Positions 4,322-26,688 of a stretch of 64,000 nt of DNA are shown in pieces. A program made the position numbers and the translations under genes. This DNA is from Escherichia phage warpig. Position 1 is the stretch's first letter, and each line of letters begins with the position of its first letter. The notes beneath the pieces are model-generated. The model had not been told where the DNA came from, made no database searches, and worked only from the letters and a program-made list of their open reading frames with translations. The stretch lies in the sequence record MN850637.1, one strand, 5' to 3'.

Positions 4322-6103
4322 ATGACTAAATCACTTTATGCAGTACCAGCAGGTTTAAACGCAGATGCTTACAAGTCTGGTCATGTTTACCAGTATCCTA
4401 GTGCAACAGAGTACTTGATGTTCAACCTGACACCACGTAGTGACAAATGGTTTAACAGCCCCTTAGCAATTGATGGTGTAGTGGCTTTTGGTATTCAACG
4501 TTTCGTTAAAGATTACTTGATAGACCACTGGAACGCCACTTTCTTTGAACGTGATAAAAAAGAAGCAATTGACGAAATCTTAGAAGTCATGAATGGTGTT
4601 TTGGGTAAAGATGCTATCGGTCGAGAGCATTGGGAAGCACTTCACGACTTAGGCTATCTACCAGTTGAAGTATACGCTGTAGAAGAAGGTACAGTTGTTC
4701 CGATGCGTGTCCCAATGATTGTCTTTCAGAACACTGTTTCAGGTTTCCATTGGGTAGCAGGGTATCTGGAAGATGCTTTCTCTGCTGAGATTTGGAAGGC
4801 TTGTACCATTGCAACTATTGCATTGCACTACAAACGTATCTGTAAGAAGTGGGCTGACCTTACTTGTGACAATGACTTACATTTACCTTACCAGTGCCAT
4901 GACTTTGCTATGCGTGGTATGTCAGGCTTTACTGATGACGCATTTAACGCTGTAGGCCACTTAACCAGCTTTAAAGGGACTGATAGCTTCCCTGCTGTAT
5001 ATACAGCTAAACGCATCTACGGACAGTCTTACCCAGTCTCTGATATTGGTGGTTCTGTACCAGCCACTGAACACTCTGTAATGTGTGCAAACATTGCTTG
5101 GGAAGGTGGTAATGAATTGATTGAAGAGGAAAGACGCTTTAAAGGTGAATTACAAACCTTCCGTCGCTTCTTAACAGAAACTTACCCAACTGGTATTGCA
5201 AGTATTGTTTCAGATACTTATAACTTCTGGAGAACTGTGTCAGAAATCTTACCAGCACTTCGTAAAGAGATTATGGAACGTGACGGTAAACTGGTAATTC
5301 GTCCTGACTCTGGAGACCCTGTACATATTGTCACAGGTTATAAAGCAATCCACTTAGAGTGTGCTAAAAAGGCTTATTACGAGCACCTAAGCAAGCTGGA
5401 AGCCAGTGACACAATGCTGAATGCTGTTCTGAACATGAAGCTTGAAAACATCAGCTATGGTATTGCTGGATGGCTACTGTCAGAAGGCTACGAAATGGTT
5501 GTTGACCGAGAAGACTTTGAAGTTGCTGATACAGTGATGTTGAAAAATACTTATATGGTTGGCTCTGCAAACGTTGTAACACGTCCTGTAGCAGAGATTG
5601 ATGGAGCTATTAAGACCCTGTACAACATCTTCGGAGGGACTATTAACTCTAAAGGGTTTAAGGTACTGGATGAGCACATCGGCCTTATCTATGGTGACTC
5701 TATCACACTGGAACGTGCAAACGAAATCCTGAAGCGTCTGTATGAAATGGGTTTTGCAAGCTCTAACGTAGTGTTTGGCGTAGGCTCTTACACTTACCAG
5801 TACATGACTCGTGACACCTTTGCATTTGCTGTTAAAGCAACTCTTGCAAGCATTGGTGGTAAAGAGATTATGCTTGCAAAAGACCCTAAAACAGATAGTG
5901 GTGTTAAGAAGTCTGCTTTTGGTGGTGTAGCACCTATGTGGGATGGTGATAAGTTGAAAGCTGTAGATGGCTATGGATTCCAGAGCTTTGCAGATGCACT
6001 TGAACATCCAGCTTGTGCTTTACGTTTAGTCTTTAGTGACTCTGAGCAGTACGGTTACACATCTCTTGGTGATATTCGAAATAATATTGACAAGCAGCTT
6101 TAA
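4322..6103 (+). CDS. nadV: nicotinamide phosphoribosyltransferase (NAMPT/NadV)-family protein
   Basis: 593 aa; NAPRTase-family signature LVIRPDSGDPV; N-terminal YKSGHVYQYP. Confidence 0.8.
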   Translation: MTKSLYAVPAGLNADAYKSGHVYQYPSATEYLMFNLTPRSDKWFNSPLAIDGVVAFGIQRFVKDYLIDHWNATFFERDKKEAIDEILEVMNGVLGKDAIGREHWEALHDLGYLPVEVYAVEEGTVVPMRVPMIVFQNTVSGFHWVAGYLEDAFSAEIWKACTIATIALHYKRICKKWADLTCDNDLHLPYQCHDFAMRGMSGFTDDAFNAVGHLTSFKGTDSFPAVYTAKRIYGQSYPVSDIGGSVPATEHSVMCANIAWEGGNELIEEERRFKGELQTFRRFLTETYPTGIASIVSDTYNFWRTVSEILPALRKEIMERDGKLVIRPDSGDPVHIVTGYKAIHLECAKKAYYEHLSKLEASDTMLNAVLNMKLENISYGIAGWLLSEGYEMVVDREDFEVADTVMLKNTYMVGSANVVTRPVAEIDGAIKTLYNIFGGTINSKGFKVLDEHIGLIYGDSITLERANEILKRLYEMGFASSNVVFGVGSYTYQYMTRDTFAFAVKATLASIGGKEIMLAKDPKTDSGVKKSAFGGVAPMWDGDKLKAVDGYGFQSFADALEHPACALRLVFSDSEQYGYTSLGDIRNNIDKQL

Positions 6104-6118
6104 AAGTATATGATAAGA

Positions 6119-6143
6119 GGCTCCTACGGGAGCCTTTTTAATT
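6119..6143 (+). terminator. Rho-independent terminator
   Basis: GGCTCC-TACG-GGAGCC followed by TTTTTAATTT. Confidence 0.6.
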
Positions 6144-10334: not shown

Positions 10335-10883
10335 ATGAAGAAATTGATTCTAGGTTTGTGCTTAATGTTTACAGCACACTTATCTTATGCAGTTGACTGC
10401 CCAGAGCTATCAATTAGCCAAAAAGTAAACATGTTAAAAGCTTACCAGTATGGTGAGAATAACATGGGTAAAGGTTGGGGTATCACTCTAGCTGCTATAG
10501 CCTTACAAGAGTCAGAGTTAGGTCTGAAGGTAGAGAATAAAAAGACACATGATTATGGTATCTTCCAGAATCACTTGAAGACTGTTGTAAAGCGTAACAA
10601 AATTAGTCCTAATGTGGCTAAAAAGAAACTCTTAAAAGACTTTGACTATGCTGCGAAGGAAACTCACAAAGAGCTTGAGTTTTGGACAAAGGTGCATGGT
10701 CAGCCAAAGTCAAAGAAGACTTTACAAAAAGTTTTAGCATCATATAATGCTGGGTATTCGTACAAAATCCCTAAAGCTAAGAAATATTCTCAAGATGTCT
10801 ATAACAACATGAAAGTCATTGCTCAATGTGAATTTGCAATAAACATTTCTAAGGTAAACCATGAAAAAATTAAAAAAGTCTGA
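10335..10883 (+). CDS. secreted lytic-transglycosylase (SLT)-domain protein
   Basis: 182 aa; signal peptide MKKLILGLCLMFTAHLSYA; SLT-like catalytic region AIALQESELG...DYGIFQ. Confidence 0.45.
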   Translation: MKKLILGLCLMFTAHLSYAVDCPELSISQKVNMLKAYQYGENNMGKGWGITLAAIALQESELGLKVENKKTHDYGIFQNHLKTVVKRNKISPNVAKKKLLKDFDYAAKETHKELEFWTKVHGQPKSKKTLQKVLASYNAGYSYKIPKAKKYSQDVYNNMKVIAQCEFAINISKVNHEKIKKV

Positions 10884-11556
10884 TGAAGTACTGTGTCATG
10901 CTTACGACTTACATCCTCATGAGTTAGGTCTTGATTCCTGTGTATGGACTCCAGAACAGTGTAGGGATTTTGAAGACACTGCAAGAGAAGTTGTATGTTC
11001 ACTCGAAGAGTTCCACACATCAGAGCCAATTGTGAATGTTGTAGATAAAGAGACTGGACAAACTATAGGTGTAAGTCGTGATAGCTTAGTCATAGTCAAT
11101 AAAGACCTTGTAGAAAAAGGTAACCTCATCTTAGCAGATATTGATGGTGTTCTTACAAATTTTAATCACGAAGATTGCTCAACGGAATTGACTGATGGGT
11201 CATTCTCACAGTACACTAATCTTCTTGACTCTGTAAGAGCAAAACCAACGTATGTCTTTAGTATTATTGATGCAATTGCTAATCATGCTGCCGTTGGACT
11301 CTTGACAGCGAGAGGCGAATCTCAGAGAATACCTACTGAGATGTTTTTAAGGCATAACACAGAGCATGATTATATGCTTTTTATGCGTGGTTTTGGAACT
11401 AACTCTATAAGTGCAGAAAGTTTGAAAGTGAGAATGATTCAGTCTTGCATTCTGCCTTACTTTAATATAGTATGTTTTATAGAAGATACAGAGAAGAACG
11501 TGCAGAAGGTGAACAGAATCCTTCCACACATCAAAACCATGTTAGTTAAACATTGA
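10861..11556 (+). CDS. HAD-superfamily hydrolase-like protein (possible nucleotidase/phosphatase)
   Basis: 231 aa; DxDG[TV]L-type motif ILADIDGVLTNF. Confidence 0.4.
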   Translation: MKKLKKSDEVLCHAYDLHPHELGLDSCVWTPEQCRDFEDTAREVVCSLEEFHTSEPIVNVVDKETGQTIGVSRDSLVIVNKDLVEKGNLILADIDGVLTNFNHEDCSTELTDGSFSQYTNLLDSVRAKPTYVFSIIDAIANHAAVGLLTARGESQRIPTEMFLRHNTEHDYMLFMRGFGTNSISAESLKVRMIQSCILPYFNIVCFIEDTEKNVQKVNRILPHIKTMLVKH

Positions 11557-11566
11557 GAGAAAACTT

Positions 11567-12031
11567 ATGAACAATATCATTACGGTAGCACTGGACGTTA
11601 CGGCAAACAAATCTGAAGTAGTTCGTAACATTATCAAGAGCAACTTTGAGGGTAAAATCTTCCGTGCTGTCAATGTAAAAGCAGACGGCAACATCCGAGA
11701 GTATCGTGCTCTTTTGAATGTTAAGAAACACGTCAAAGGTTCTGGTTCAACGACTGCACACAAAGAAAACCTGATGACTATCTATGATATGGGTATGGCT
11801 TCAGAGTTAGGTGCTGAAGGTATCGTTAAAGAAGGTGCTCCGTATCGCTCTTTCAATCTGGAAACTGCTCTCATGCTTTCCTTTACAAGTGGTTCTAAAA
11901 CAACTACTTATCTCTTTACTGATGCTGCAACGGTATCTGCTATCAAGGATAACGCTATCAAAGCTGGGGTAGCTGCTGCTGCAAAAGCTTCTTCGATGGC
12001 TGCAAATGTCCTTGCTAAAGTCCTCGGTTAA
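11567..12031 (+). CDS. hypothetical protein
   Basis: 154 aa; followed by a strong terminator. Confidence 0.5.
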   Translation: MNNIITVALDVTANKSEVVRNIIKSNFEGKIFRAVNVKADGNIREYRALLNVKKHVKGSGSTTAHKENLMTIYDMGMASELGAEGIVKEGAPYRSFNLETALMLSFTSGSKTTTYLFTDAATVSAIKDNAIKAGVAAAAKASSMAANVLAKVLG

Positions 12032-12043
12032 GGTTAAGATACA

Positions 12044-12066
12044 GGCTCCTTCGGGAGCCTTTTTCA
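12044..12066 (+). terminator. Rho-independent terminator
   Basis: GGCTCC-TTCG-GGAGCC followed by TTTTTCATTT. Confidence 0.6.
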
Positions 12067-12083
12067 TTTCAGGAGATTGTTAA

Positions 12084-12431
12084 ATGACATTTAAAGAGTT
12101 CTGTCAAGCTACTTTTATAATTGTTTTCTTAGTTGGGGCAGGTGTCTGGGGAGGATACTCTTACAGAGACTATCAAGTTGCTGAAGCTGAGCTAAACAAT
12201 GAGAAACTAATAAGTGTTGCTAAAGATGCTTATCAGGAAGGTTTAGCCACACTCAGCACCAATTACAAAAATGATTTGAAAGATGTGCTTGCTAAGAATA
12301 AGCATACAAAAGAGGTACTAACATATGAAAAAACTAAGCCAGAGTTTTATAATGTTTGTGTTACTGATAACTATGTCAGGGTGTTCAACGAACAAAGTGA
12401 ACAGTACATTCAAAAACTCCCAAGTAAGTGA
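12084..12431 (+). CDS. membrane protein with N-terminal TM helix and coiled-coil (i-spanin-like candidate)
   Basis: 115 aa; TM FIIVFLVGAGVWGGYSY; a lipoprotein gene overlaps its 3' end in another frame. Confidence 0.35.
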   Translation: MTFKEFCQATFIIVFLVGAGVWGGYSYRDYQVAEAELNNEKLISVAKDAYQEGLATLSTNYKNDLKDVLAKNKHTKEVLTYEKTKPEFYNVCVTDNYVRVFNEQSEQYIQKLPSK

Positions 12432-12594
12432 GAGTGACAAGTACACTCAAGAGGAGTCAAGATTCACTGTCAAAGGCAATACCGGTAGTGATGTGGCAGC
12501 AGCCCTTGAGTTTTATCGTGATGGTTTTTACCAGTGCACAATCAAAGCTAATAACCTTATTGATATGATTTTATTAGGAAACAAACAGCAATGA
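12325..12594 (+). CDS. lipoprotein (o-spanin-like or superinfection-exclusion candidate)
   Basis: 89 aa; lipobox ITMSGC after hydrophobic signal; overlaps the previous gene by about 107 nt out of frame. Confidence 0.4.
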   Translation: MKKLSQSFIMFVLLITMSGCSTNKVNSTFKNSQVSESDKYTQEESRFTVKGNTGSDVAAALEFYRDGFYQCTIKANNLIDMILLGNKQQ

Positions 12595-13584: not shown

Positions 13585-14370
13585 ATGGGTATTGTAAAAA
13601 TCATCAATGGGGATATCTTCTCCGCATTTGATAAAGGTAAGTTTGATATTATTGGTCACGGTTGCAACTGTATGAACTTAATGGGTGCAGGTATCGCTGA
13701 CAAGATTTCTAAACTTTACCCAAAAGCATATGAGACCGATACAGAAGTTTATTTGTATGCAGGTGGCATAGGCCACAAACCCTGTGAAAATTTACTAGGT
13801 AATTTCTCTGTAGCACGTTTAAAACAAGGCCGTATAGCTAACCTTTACACTCAGCTTAAGACTGGTAAAGATGCCCGATACAGTGCTTTAGAGTCATCTT
13901 TGAAACAGCTTAACAGATACTGTGAAGTCAATCAGTTGAAGAAAGTCGGGTTACCTATGATTGGTGCAGGTATCGGTGGGCTAGACGCTCAAGCCGTCAC
14001 AGTTATCATTAATCAGGTGATGAAGAGTGTAGATGTGTATCTGTATGTCTATGAAGGAGAGATGTACCACAAGTTACGCTCAGGTTGGAAGAACTACTGT
14101 GAACCAGAATACTTTGCAGGTGTAGTAACGTTCACAGACAATACAGTTACCCTCTTCAGACGAAGAAAAGGTAAGATACATCAAAGTAACCCTCCGGTTG
14201 AAAAGATGTCTCTAAGTAACGCTCTAGTTACCCACCTGTCGAAGAGCAATCACAGGATTGCAGTAACATTTGGTAGTGATGCAGACACTTATATCTATGC
14301 AAGAACTGATGAGGGTATCGAGACAGTTTTCTCTTCGCCAGAAGTTACCTTCTTAGACGCAAAGAACTAA
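13585..14370 (+). CDS. macro-domain protein (ADP-ribose-binding/hydrolase fold) with extra C-terminal domain
   Basis: 261 aa; macro motifs GDIFSAFDKGKFDIIGHGCNCMNLMGAGIA and LPMIGAGIGGL. Confidence 0.65.
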   Translation: MGIVKIINGDIFSAFDKGKFDIIGHGCNCMNLMGAGIADKISKLYPKAYETDTEVYLYAGGIGHKPCENLLGNFSVARLKQGRIANLYTQLKTGKDARYSALESSLKQLNRYCEVNQLKKVGLPMIGAGIGGLDAQAVTVIINQVMKSVDVYLYVYEGEMYHKLRSGWKNYCEPEYFAGVVTFTDNTVTLFRRRKGKIHQSNPPVEKMSLSNALVTHLSKSNHRIAVTFGSDADTYIYARTDEGIETVFSSPEVTFLDAKN

Positions 14371-14440
14371 GAAACTCTGTAGAGTATTCACAATAAACTA
14401 AGCCTTTCTTATCTGGTAAATTTTTCAGGTAAGGAGGGCT

Positions 14441-14640
14441 TTTTCATTTCAGAATTGTGCAGGTATATTTCTATAGAGAAATCTGTAGAGGAAATTTTGA
14501 ACTCCAAAGAGAAAATTCATTTTCAAACTGTGCAGGTAATCTCCAAAGGGTTTTTTCATTTTCAAAACGTGCAGAGAAAAATCAGGTCGGGCAAGAAAAA
14601 TCATTTTAGAATTGTGCAGGTAGGTGGGTGCAGGTGGGGA
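14441..14640 (+). repeat. 4-5 degenerate direct repeats of TTTTCAtTTCAgAAtTGTGCAGGTA-like units
   Basis: Read directly: copies near 14441, 14514, 14553, 14596 and a GTGCAGGT(G)G tail. Confidence 0.5.
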
Positions 14641-15996: not shown

Positions 15997-16509
15997 ATGA
16001 AAACTGTAGACGCTACCTTTGAAGTTGTAAAAGAAAAATTTTCCATCGTTTATGAGGCTGTTAATTGCTATGAAGCAAGTCATAATCTTGATAATTGGAA
16101 GTTTACAGATGACCATCAAGGCGGTGTGACTGTTAAAAATCCTAACTGTCAGCGTAATGATTTTAAATATGCAATCCCTTTACATTACAGCCTTAAGCAG
16201 CTTTCAAGTGACTATGCAAAACAAGGCCGTGAGAATCCATCGAAAGAGGCTTACACGAGCTTACAGAAAGAACTAGAAAGAGATTTAGAGGCTTCAGAGT
16301 ATAACCTTGCCGCGAAAGTTGTGGATGCAAACGGTAGCACGGTTTTAGAAAGTTTTTATCTTGGTTACGCTTTCGATTGGTGCTATCGTGACGGCGATGA
16401 TTTAGATGACAGGCTAAAAGAGGAAGTGAACAACGCAGACGCAGAATCTGAAGTATTAGAACGCTTGGAAGCATTAAAAGATTCAGTGATGAATATCTTT
16501 AAGGACTAA
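15997..16509 (+). CDS. small acidic early-region protein (hypothetical)
   Basis: 170 aa; conserved leader upstream. Confidence 0.5.
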   Translation: MKTVDATFEVVKEKFSIVYEAVNCYEASHNLDNWKFTDDHQGGVTVKNPNCQRNDFKYAIPLHYSLKQLSSDYAKQGRENPSKEAYTSLQKELERDLEASEYNLAAKVVDANGSTVLESFYLGYAFDWCYRDGDDLDDRLKEEVNNADAESEVLERLEALKDSVMNIFKD

Positions 16510-23838: not shown

Positions 23839-24372
23839 CTATAATTGTAGGTTGCATTCTTTACTTACCTCTTCAAGTTTAACCTCAGAATCCTTAAGTC
23901 GTTTCTTATGAACTCTGAACCTCATTAGTGAGATGATGATACCAGCTAAAGGAACAACATACAAGTACCAGACATCATGCAACTTTGCAGTAATCTGTGT
24001 AATGGTCAAGTCTTGAGCTATGTAGCTGATTGCTGATACAGCTAGTAATGTTGCTAAGAAGAACACTAGTATCATAACAATATTTAGACAACCTCTGGCA
24101 TGATATTCATGCTTAATGCACTTATTCTTTTCGTCAGCAACCCTGTTGTAGTCATTTGTAAAGTCTCTGTAGAAAGCTTTCAAGTATTCTTGATTGTAGC
24201 CCTCAAAGCAACCTGTACCGTACCAGTAATCACCACCAAAATGTGCTATGATACCGGTATCTCCATTTGGTTTTGTTACTCTTAGGGAGACATGATGACC
24301 AGTCTTCTGATAATCTATCTTATATCTTTCTTCGTAAATCATTTTCCAACCCCTCTCAATCGTTTGTTCCAC
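23839..24372 (-). CDS. membrane protein with two C-terminal TM helices (hypothetical)
   Basis: 177 aa; hydrophobic LNIVMILVFFLATLLAVSAISYI and YLYVVPLAGIIISL. Confidence 0.45.
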   Translation of the reverse strand: MEQTIERGWKMIYEERYKIDYQKTGHHVSLRVTKPNGDTGIIAHFGGDYWYGTGCFEGYNQEYLKAFYRDFTNDYNRVADEKNKCIKHEYHARGCLNIVMILVFFLATLLAVSAISYIAQDLTITQITAKLHDVWYLYVVPLAGIIISLMRFRVHKKRLKDSEVKLEEVSKECNLQL

Positions 24373-26659: not shown

Positions 26660-26688
26660 AGAAAATAAAAAAGGCTCCCGAAGGAGCC
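26660..26688 (-). terminator. Rho-independent terminator after the endolysin gene
   Basis: GGCTCC-TTCG-GGAGCC on the - strand followed by TTTTTTATTTT. Confidence 0.6.

Follow-up and report, generated by a model that had tools for sequence, protein, structure and literature searches.

We investigated a pair of overlapping genes on the plus strand of a 64,000-nucleotide (nt) stretch of DNA from Escherichia phage warpig (sequence record MN850637.1; this whole stretch is called the window in the following). The two open reading frames (ORFs) encode a membrane protein of 115 amino acids (aa) and an 89-aa lipoprotein precursor (Table 1). Based on signals, architecture and context, the pair very probably serves a Felix O1-like myophage as its two-component spanin, i.e., an i-spanin and an o-spanin that break the outer membrane at the end of lysis. 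An initial annotation, made from the letters of the window, had called the pair spanin-like. This reading is supported by the topology signals, the +1 overlap, one cysteine per partner, the match to PHROG 1152, the annotations of related phages, the catalogue of Kongari et al. (2018; PMC6139136) and the lysis cassettes in which homologues are found. The pair is, moreover, already known and catalogued as an overlapped two-component spanin.

The window belongs to Felixounavirus. Over 2 kb, it is 98% identical to Escherichia phage JohannRWettstein and 95.5% identical to Salmonella phage Felix O1, and the pair corresponds to Felix O1 ORF6 and ORF7 (Felix01p014, labelled 'Rz-like spanin', and p015). 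The first protein differs from the ORF6 product by four amino acids (about 97% identity), while the overlap of the two genes shows no nucleotide difference at all. Both pairs have the same lengths (115 and 89 aa), the same 107-nt overlap, the same upstream terminator and the same ribosome-binding site. There is no substantial difference between them, and the window represents a further isolate of the same genus. In JohannRWettstein and many other GenBank records, the pair is annotated as i-spanin and o-spanin. Kongari et al. (2018) list the Felix01 pair as 'ovl' with coordinates 5330-5678 and 5571-5841 and an overlap of 107 nt, and assign its i-spanin to a family named 'JH2', which includes Felix01, Moogle, Mushroom, WV8, NJ01, phiEco32 and KBNP1711; the Felix01 partner is placed in the 'JH2' o-spanin family. 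The window pair falls into this overlapped spanin sequence family: tblastn comparisons with NJ01 and other Kuravirus i-spanins yield 31-37% identity with E-values down to 9e-10.

The 115-aa protein has the features expected of the i-component of a two-component spanin, i.e., it is small and combines one N-terminal transmembrane domain with a periplasmic C-terminal domain. The N-terminal transmembrane helix proposed in the initial annotation is confirmed as the single hydrophobic stretch of the protein (residues ~9-25). On the Kyte-Doolittle scale, the highest score over 19 residues is 1.75, and a polar tail of 88 residues follows. From this we infer an N-in orientation. Table S1 of Kongari et al. 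(2018) likewise flags a transmembrane domain in the Felix01 i-spanin, with the periplasmic domain starting at R28 and 66% of that domain predicted to be helical. Among the PHROG profiles, the protein matches PHROG 1152 ('Rz-like spanin') with an E-value of 9e-42. In the family alignment, G24, E82, N90, C92 and N102 are invariant, and the best-conserved motif reads K-P-x-F-x-N-x-C-x-[ST]-D-x-Y-V-R-x-F-N-E.

The 89-aa ORF starts with MKKLSQSFIMFVLLITMSG followed by CST, i.e., lysines at positions 2 and 3 precede a hydrophobic core free of charges and a lipobox with Cys20, next to which a serine occupies position +2. This N-terminus is, as far as can be read from the letters, a signal peptidase II lipoprotein signal without the aspartate that mediates inner-membrane retention, which is what the sequence of an o-component should provide (a lipobox cysteine signal without Asp at +2). 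The lipobox ITMSGC of the initial annotation is found again, with predicted cleavage between ITMSG and Cys20. A six-frame scan identified no other ATG-initiated ORF with a lipoprotein signal in the 64-kb window; the scan gave just one further match, which lies on the minus strand (16193-16330) and is a TTG-initiated ORF of 45 aa. With respect to PHROG, the protein matches phrog_4180 (unknown function) and, weakly (1e-4), phrog_456 ('Rz-like spanin'). Invariant residues are G54, C71, N76 and L78, and the surroundings of C71 follow the motif Y-x-x-x-Y-x-x-C-x-x-x-x-N-x-L.

Both partners therefore carry one invariant periplasmic cysteine each (C92 in the i-protein, C71 in the o-protein). Two-component spanins need homotypic intermolecular disulfides, which was shown for lambda and T4 and inferred for 507/528 catalogued systems. 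The observed one-cysteine-per-partner pattern fits this requirement of the lambda and T4 spanins.

The arrangement of the genes was largely as first described: both ORFs are present at exactly the coordinates given in the initial annotation and overlap out of frame, with the second ORF in the +1 frame of the first over 107 nt. They are, however, not arranged in the embedded Rz/Rz1 layout that had been claimed. The o-ORF extends 163 nt beyond the i-ORF's stop codon, such that the pair is overlapped in the manner of P2 lysB/lysC. An RBS string identical to the Shine-Dalgarno motif of the i-spanin gene is given for Felix01 in Table S1 of Kongari et al. (2018). The ORF list of the window also holds two short minus-strand ORFs (42 aa and 35 aa) beneath the pair.

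To assess the coding status of both frames, we compared the window with Felix O1, Sf19 and SUSP2. Within the non-overlapping part of the o-ORF, 64-82% of the substitutions are synonymous, compared to 19.5% expected for random change (p ~1e-9). The overlap shows a divergence of 10-12%, about half of the 20-25% found in the single-coding flanks, as expected given dual coding. Hence, both frames are under selection. The DNA of the best-conserved i-spanin segment also encodes the signal peptide and lipobox of the o-spanin; e.g., one stretch reads YVRVFN in the i-frame (12372-12389) and MSGCST in the o-frame (12373-12390). As a consequence, conservation of the C-terminal motif of the i-spanin and of the lipobox of its partner is locked together, and either frame may drive it.

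Next, we studied the distribution of the pair among phage genomes. Using tblastn, the 89-aa product is found in 330 records and the 115-aa product in 402. Homologues of both proteins extend beyond the Ounavirinae to Kuravirus podophages, two Peduoviridae and one phage each of Klebsiella and Proteus, with about 30-37% identity. Nine related loci from these groups (Ounavirinae, Kuravirus, Peduoviridae, Klebsiella phage, Proteus phage) were inspected, eight of them by an automatic filter and the Yersinia locus by eye. In all nine, a +1-frame ORF with a lipobox-cysteine motif is present (MSGC, TSGC, MSAC, ISAC, IAGC or TASC). The gene adjacency is thus that of spanins, whose o-gene is embedded in the i-gene, overlaps it in the +1 frame or follows it. 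The protein-database homologue search found close relatives alone and an exhaustive HMMER search 5 representatives. Short overlapped genes are scarce in the collections searched in this way, and tblastn against phage genomes revealed far more. Searches of the pair against Pfam, NCBIfam and PDB sequences returned sub-threshold matches or matches to lipoprotein signal peptides alone.

In four of these genomes, the homologous pair is located directly downstream of lysis genes, which we confirmed by Pfam rather than by record labels. In Yersinia phage vB_YenM_324, Phage_holin_3_2 (6.5e-39) and Peptidase_M15_4 genes precede the pair. Salmonella phage SI7 has a Peptidase_M15_4 gene at this place, Klebsiella phage VLCpiS10a a Phage_lysozyme gene followed by one for a small membrane protein, and Proteus phage 2207-N35 a CHAP gene. 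Among the arguments from context, this recurrence of the conserved pair behind endolysins of unrelated types speaks most strongly for a role in lysis.

Some records deserve a comment. The 'O-spanin' of Yersinia phage vB_YenM_324 (record positions 2793-2981) is annotated with a start after the lipobox (the translation begins with MPPNVPY), while this frame encodes an MSGC further upstream; the record probably gives a wrong start codon. For Salmonella phage vB_Si_DR094, a comparative paper reports the i-spanin gene alone. Via tblastn we find an intact full-length o-spanin ORF that is 96.6% identical (MZ327262.1, 62346-62612), i.e., the missing o-spanin is, judged by this match, an annotation gap and not a gene loss. 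An o-spanin 100% identical to that of the window is encoded at 41344-41610 of MG065668.1, a 43-kb unannotated record named 'Campylobacter phage A126', which is probably a mislabelled or contaminated Felixounavirus sequence.

Table 1. Features of the putative spanin pair and its surroundings (positions within the window).
Feature	Position	Strand	Description	Basis
i-spanin gene (putative)	12084-12431	+	115 aa; Felix O1 ORF6 / Felix01p014	ORF list, PHROG 1152, Kongari et al. (2018)
o-spanin gene (putative)	12325-12594	+	89-aa precursor, 70-aa mature lipoprotein from Cys20; Felix O1 ORF7	ORF list, lipobox, selection
Dual-coding overlap	12325-12431	+	107 nt, o-frame +1 relative to i-frame
Shine-Dalgarno motif of i-spanin gene	12072-12076	+	AGGAG	sequence reading
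Shine-Dalgarno motif of o-spanin gene	12310-12315	+	AAGAGG, within i-spanin gene, 9 nt 5' of ATG	sequence reading
Transmembrane helix of i-spanin	12108-12158	+	residues 9-25, ATFIIVFLVGAGVWGGY	hydropathy calculation
Best-conserved i-spanin segment	12327-12395	+	EKTKPEFYNVCVTDNYVRVFNEQ, invariant E82, N90, C92, N102	family alignment
Lipobox of o-spanin	12373-12384	+	M-S-G-C; Cys20 predicted to be lipidated, next residue Ser not Asp	lipobox analysis
Codon of o-spanin Cys71	12535-12537	+	sole periplasmic Cys, invariant in 9/9 aligned homologues	alignment
o-spanin stop / start of next gene	12591-12594	+	ATGA; next gene equivalent to Felix O1 ORF8	ORF list
Intrinsic terminator	12043-12068	+	GGCUCC-UUCG-GGAGCC stem and U run, 16 nt 5' of i-spanin start; Felix O1 t5
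Endolysin gene	26699-27163	-	GH24-type phage lysozyme	PF00959 (2e-40), phrog_7 (1e-57), annotated endolysin in JohannRWettstein

Several points weigh against the spanin assignment. With regard to sequence, no homology to lambda Rz, P2 LysB/LysC or T4 PseT.3/PseT.2 was detectable by BLASTP and hhalign. That is, the hhalign probability is 2% for the lambda Rz/Rz1 family, from which the pair also differs by its non-embedded layout, and 5% and 9.5% in the comparisons with P2 LysB/LysC (BLASTP E-values of 3.0 and 1.2). For T4, it is 0.2%, with a BLASTP E-value of 17 between the i-proteins, while the match of the o-protein to the T4 o-spanin (E-value 0.03) is limited to the signal peptide. The coiled coil that the initial annotation had ascribed to the 115-aa protein is not supported by prediction: for the Felix O1 protein, to which it is 97% identical, Pepcoil reports 0 coils, a result that is also obtained for many accepted i-spanins (Kongari et al., 2018). 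The mature o-protein has zero prolines, in contrast to lambda Rz1. Furthermore, the AlphaFold2 models, based on shallow alignments, are of low confidence for both proteins (predicted local distance difference test score, pLDDT, of 46 for the o-protein and of 56 for the i-protein, which is modelled as several short broken helices). Finally, our search of the literature yielded no study in which a member of the JH2/Felix O1 spanin sequence family was tested genetically or biochemically.

Further points of this kind concern expression. A strong terminator is located 16 nt before the i-spanin start and no evident promoter follows. A 53-nt fold made up mainly of its hairpin has a minimum free energy of -14.1 kcal/mol and is not distinguishable from shuffled sequences (z = -1.64). 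The terminator, listed as t5 at 5291..5316 in Table 2 of Whichard et al. (2010), is kept in Felix O1 and Sf19, and phiEa21-4 has an equivalent of different sequence at the same position. A search for sigma-70-like promoters gave none in the stretch from the terminator to the start of the i-spanin gene, and the closest candidates lie farther upstream (11553-11580 and 10721-10748). Thus, the pair is probably expressed via read-through or an unrecognised promoter. Timing, in turn, speaks for the assignment, as the RT-PCR of Whichard et al. (2010) shows a maximum of the Felix O1 ORF6 transcript at 25 min, i.e., in the class of the lysin gene ORF35, while the upstream ORF5 peaks at 10 min. The respective ORF6 amplicon maps to 12140-12424 of the window and includes the first 100 nt of the o-ORF; ORF7 itself was not part of the RT-PCR. 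The temporal resolution is low, and adjacent ORFs that seem to belong to one unit are assigned to different classes. A transcriptome study of Felix O1-like phages was not found in the literature. In view of the transcript maximum of Felix O1 ORF6, the 'early region' of the initial annotation is only partly apt.

The initial annotation had also emphasised that the pair lies about 14 kb from the endolysin gene on the other strand. The distance holds (14.1 kb, opposite strands), such that the typical, though non-obligatory, association of spanin and endolysin genes is missing here. It is no anomaly, however, since scattered lysis genes are documented in Felix O1-like phages and in T4, where the spanin genes pseT.3 and pseT.2 adjoin pseT, far from e and t.

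The comparison with proven spanins shows where the pair stands. With P2 LysB/LysC it shares the overlapped layout, including a +1 o-spanin that runs past the i-spanin stop. The P2 pair is part of a lysis cassette, unlike the window pair, but the equivalent slot after holin and endolysin is held by homologues of the window pair in other Peduoviridae. T4 PseT.3/PseT.2 are of similar size (117 and 83-99 aa), and their genes are likewise unlinked to holin and endolysin and surrounded by early-type genes, with one for a polynucleotide kinase close by. The two genes do not overlap in T4 but are separated, while those of the window overlap, and the periplasmic cysteines are distributed 0 + 2 in T4 and 1 + 1 in the window pair. 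The T4 o-spanin is structured, lacks a proline-rich region and depends on its cysteines for function, and PseT.2 nevertheless complements lambda. Lambda Rz/Rz1, finally, presumably belong to the same functional class, i.e., a type II inner-membrane protein combined with a +1-frame outer-membrane lipoprotein. Here, Rz1 is wholly embedded in Rz while the o-gene of the window is overlapped. For Rz, two coiled coils are predicted, and Rz1 lacks structure and is rich in proline, whereas the window pair shows no predicted coil and no proline in the mature o-protein.

We also considered shared ancestry with the T4 pseT neighbourhood. The 'polynucleotide kinase' of the window aligns only weakly to the phosphatase part of T4 PseT (E-value 0.05) and the gene order differs as well, so we take the T4 synteny as an analogy and not as shared ancestry.

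Given the work on lambda and T4, the spanin assignment suggests the following course of events. The N-terminal helix of the 115-aa protein would serve as its anchor in the inner membrane, and a mostly helical domain of 88 residues would extend into the periplasm, where both proteins would bind one another across this compartment. Each partner would be a homodimer, probably via its single conserved periplasmic cysteine (C92 and C71, respectively). The complexes would accumulate in an inert state, caged by or threaded through the peptidoglycan, until the holin frees the lysozyme encoded 14 kb away, which presumably acts upstream of the pair in one lysis pathway, and until the wall has been degraded. 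Freed by the loss of the wall, the complexes would then fuse inner and outer membranes, and progeny would be released. Complex formation, disulfide-linked dimers, restraint by the peptidoglycan and membrane fusion are all taken over from the two models by analogy. Since such a complex would do nothing as long as the wall persists, it could be produced long before lysis and from a remote site without causing problems.

Other explanations have to be weighed against the two-component spanin. The +1 ORF might be a chance open frame such that only the 115-aa membrane protein is a true gene. This would agree with its lack of annotation in some GenBank records and in one comparative paper, and with ORF7 having been left out of the RT-PCR of Felix O1. 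Yet the ORF is intact in 330 phage records, has its own Shine-Dalgarno motif, shows the strong synonymous excess in its non-overlapping part (p ~1e-9) and keeps lipobox and C-terminal motif across phage families at about 30% identity. Judging from this selection and conservation, a spurious +1 ORF is excluded, and we assign it a practically negligible probability. The initial annotation had, as a fallback, suggested that the lipoprotein mediates superinfection exclusion by blocking the receptor, i.e., that it acts, with or without its partner, as a receptor-masking factor made before lysis, like T5 Llp or Cor. The pair indeed lies far from the endolysin and among T4-early-type genes (rIIA/rIIB, the polynucleotide-kinase-like gene and the macro-domain protein gene), and the Felix O1 ORF6 transcript is present by mid-infection. 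Beyond genomic position, nothing favours exclusion. PADLOC yields no match (E-values up to 0.1), and the PHROG matches are of unknown function or 'Rz-like spanin', none of them of an exclusion type. Factors of the T5 Llp/Cor type work on their own and are linked to a protein receptor. The window lipoprotein resembles them as a small phage-encoded, predicted outer-membrane lipoprotein; in contrast, its gene never occurs without an overlapping membrane-protein gene in the 10 loci examined, and the receptor of Felix O1 is lipopolysaccharide and not a protein that a lipoprotein could plug. Neither similarity to known exclusion factors nor a stand-alone gene linked to a receptor-binding gene was observed: the neighbours are the polynucleotide-kinase-like gene, small ORFs and the macro-domain gene. 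Furthermore, the phages with homologous pairs infect Yersinia, Klebsiella, Proteus, Erwinia and E. coli and differ in the receptors they use, and the pairs are placed there inside holin-endolysin cassettes. Their position behind four endolysin domain types argues for a role in lysis and against a receptor-specific exclusion factor, such that the fallback finds no support and is very improbable.

A further alternative accepts an envelope-spanning complex but assigns it a primary role other than lysis, e.g., stabilising or tethering the envelope of the infected cell alongside the rII proteins in the course of infection, with disruption of the outer membrane otherwise done or unneeded. The closeness of the pair to rIIA/rIIB, annotated as membrane integrity protectors, would fit such a role, as would the lack of sequence homology to proven spanins and the atypical traits (no predicted coiled coil, a proline-free o-component). 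These traits are less telling given the T4 spanins, which are also proline-poor, structured and unlinked to e and t, and yet complement lambda RzRz1. We consider a non-lytic role unlikely because homologues occupy the spanin slot of lysis cassettes and because the 64-kb window offers no other spanin candidate, the o-ORF being its sole credible ORF with a lipoprotein signal. A related idea is that JH2/Felix O1 spanins work otherwise than lambda Rz/Rz1 and perhaps have a pre-lysis role, too (envelope tethering or exclusion). It draws on the absence of a predicted coil, on the proline-free and probably structured o-subunit, and on the motif locked to the lipobox (N-x-C-x-[ST]-D-x-Y-V-R-x-F-N-E). 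A pre-lysis role might exist since the genes are transcribed behind a conserved terminator from mid-infection. We regard such a deviating mechanism as rather improbable, and a spanin acting at the end of lysis is retained as the preferred assignment.

The value of this assignment lies in correct annotation, since one or both genes are still named 'hypothetical' in many Felixounavirus records. A genus-wide statement on overlapped spanins helps to annotate these phages, some of which have been suggested as agents of therapy or biocontrol. By prediction structurally unlike lambda Rz/Rz1, the JH2/Felix O1 spanin family would also be a reasonable third model for the spanin mechanism, although the advance is incremental.

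The surroundings of the pair provide additional observations. The 16-nt hairpin GGCTCCTTCGGGAGCC of the terminator (12044-12059, plus strand) occurs again at 26673-26688 on the minus strand, 11 nt 3' of the endolysin stop, and a copy with one mismatch is found at 6119-6134 on the plus strand. Whichard et al. (2010) list the two exact copies as t5 and t35. The hairpin looks like a reused terminator module.

A homologue of T4 Vs.1 and Felix O1 ORF3 is encoded at 10335-10883 on the plus strand, 1.2 kb upstream of the pair. Its product shows a sub-threshold match to an SLT transglycosylase domain (E-value 0.0012, 18.8 bits at a cut-off of 21.3), and the Sf19 counterpart is labelled 'putative lysin'; a second protein resembling a lysozyme may thus be encoded near the spanin genes. 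Downstream, the series of genes headed by the spanin pair is closed by a plus-strand gene at 13585-14370, just ahead of a terminator at 14400-14441. Its 261-aa product, which relatives list as 'phosphatase', carries a Macro domain at its N-terminus (PF01661, 1.5e-7). In Felix O1 and several of its relatives, an additional small gene of about 300 bp is found just downstream of the pair (ORF9, 102 aa, positions 4364-4672 of the Felix O1 record). It is absent from the window (at about 12860) and from JohannRWettstein, as visible from two-piece alignments with about 298 extra bases.

With regard to the holin, that of Felix O1 is reported as unidentified, and the corresponding region of the closest relative, JohannRWettstein, holds no holin annotation. 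A minus-strand gene of the window at 23839-24372, located 2.3 kb from the endolysin gene, encodes a 177-aa protein that matches phrog_4343 (unknown function) and shows, by eye, two hydrophobic stretches in its C-terminal half. This protein could be a holin candidate.

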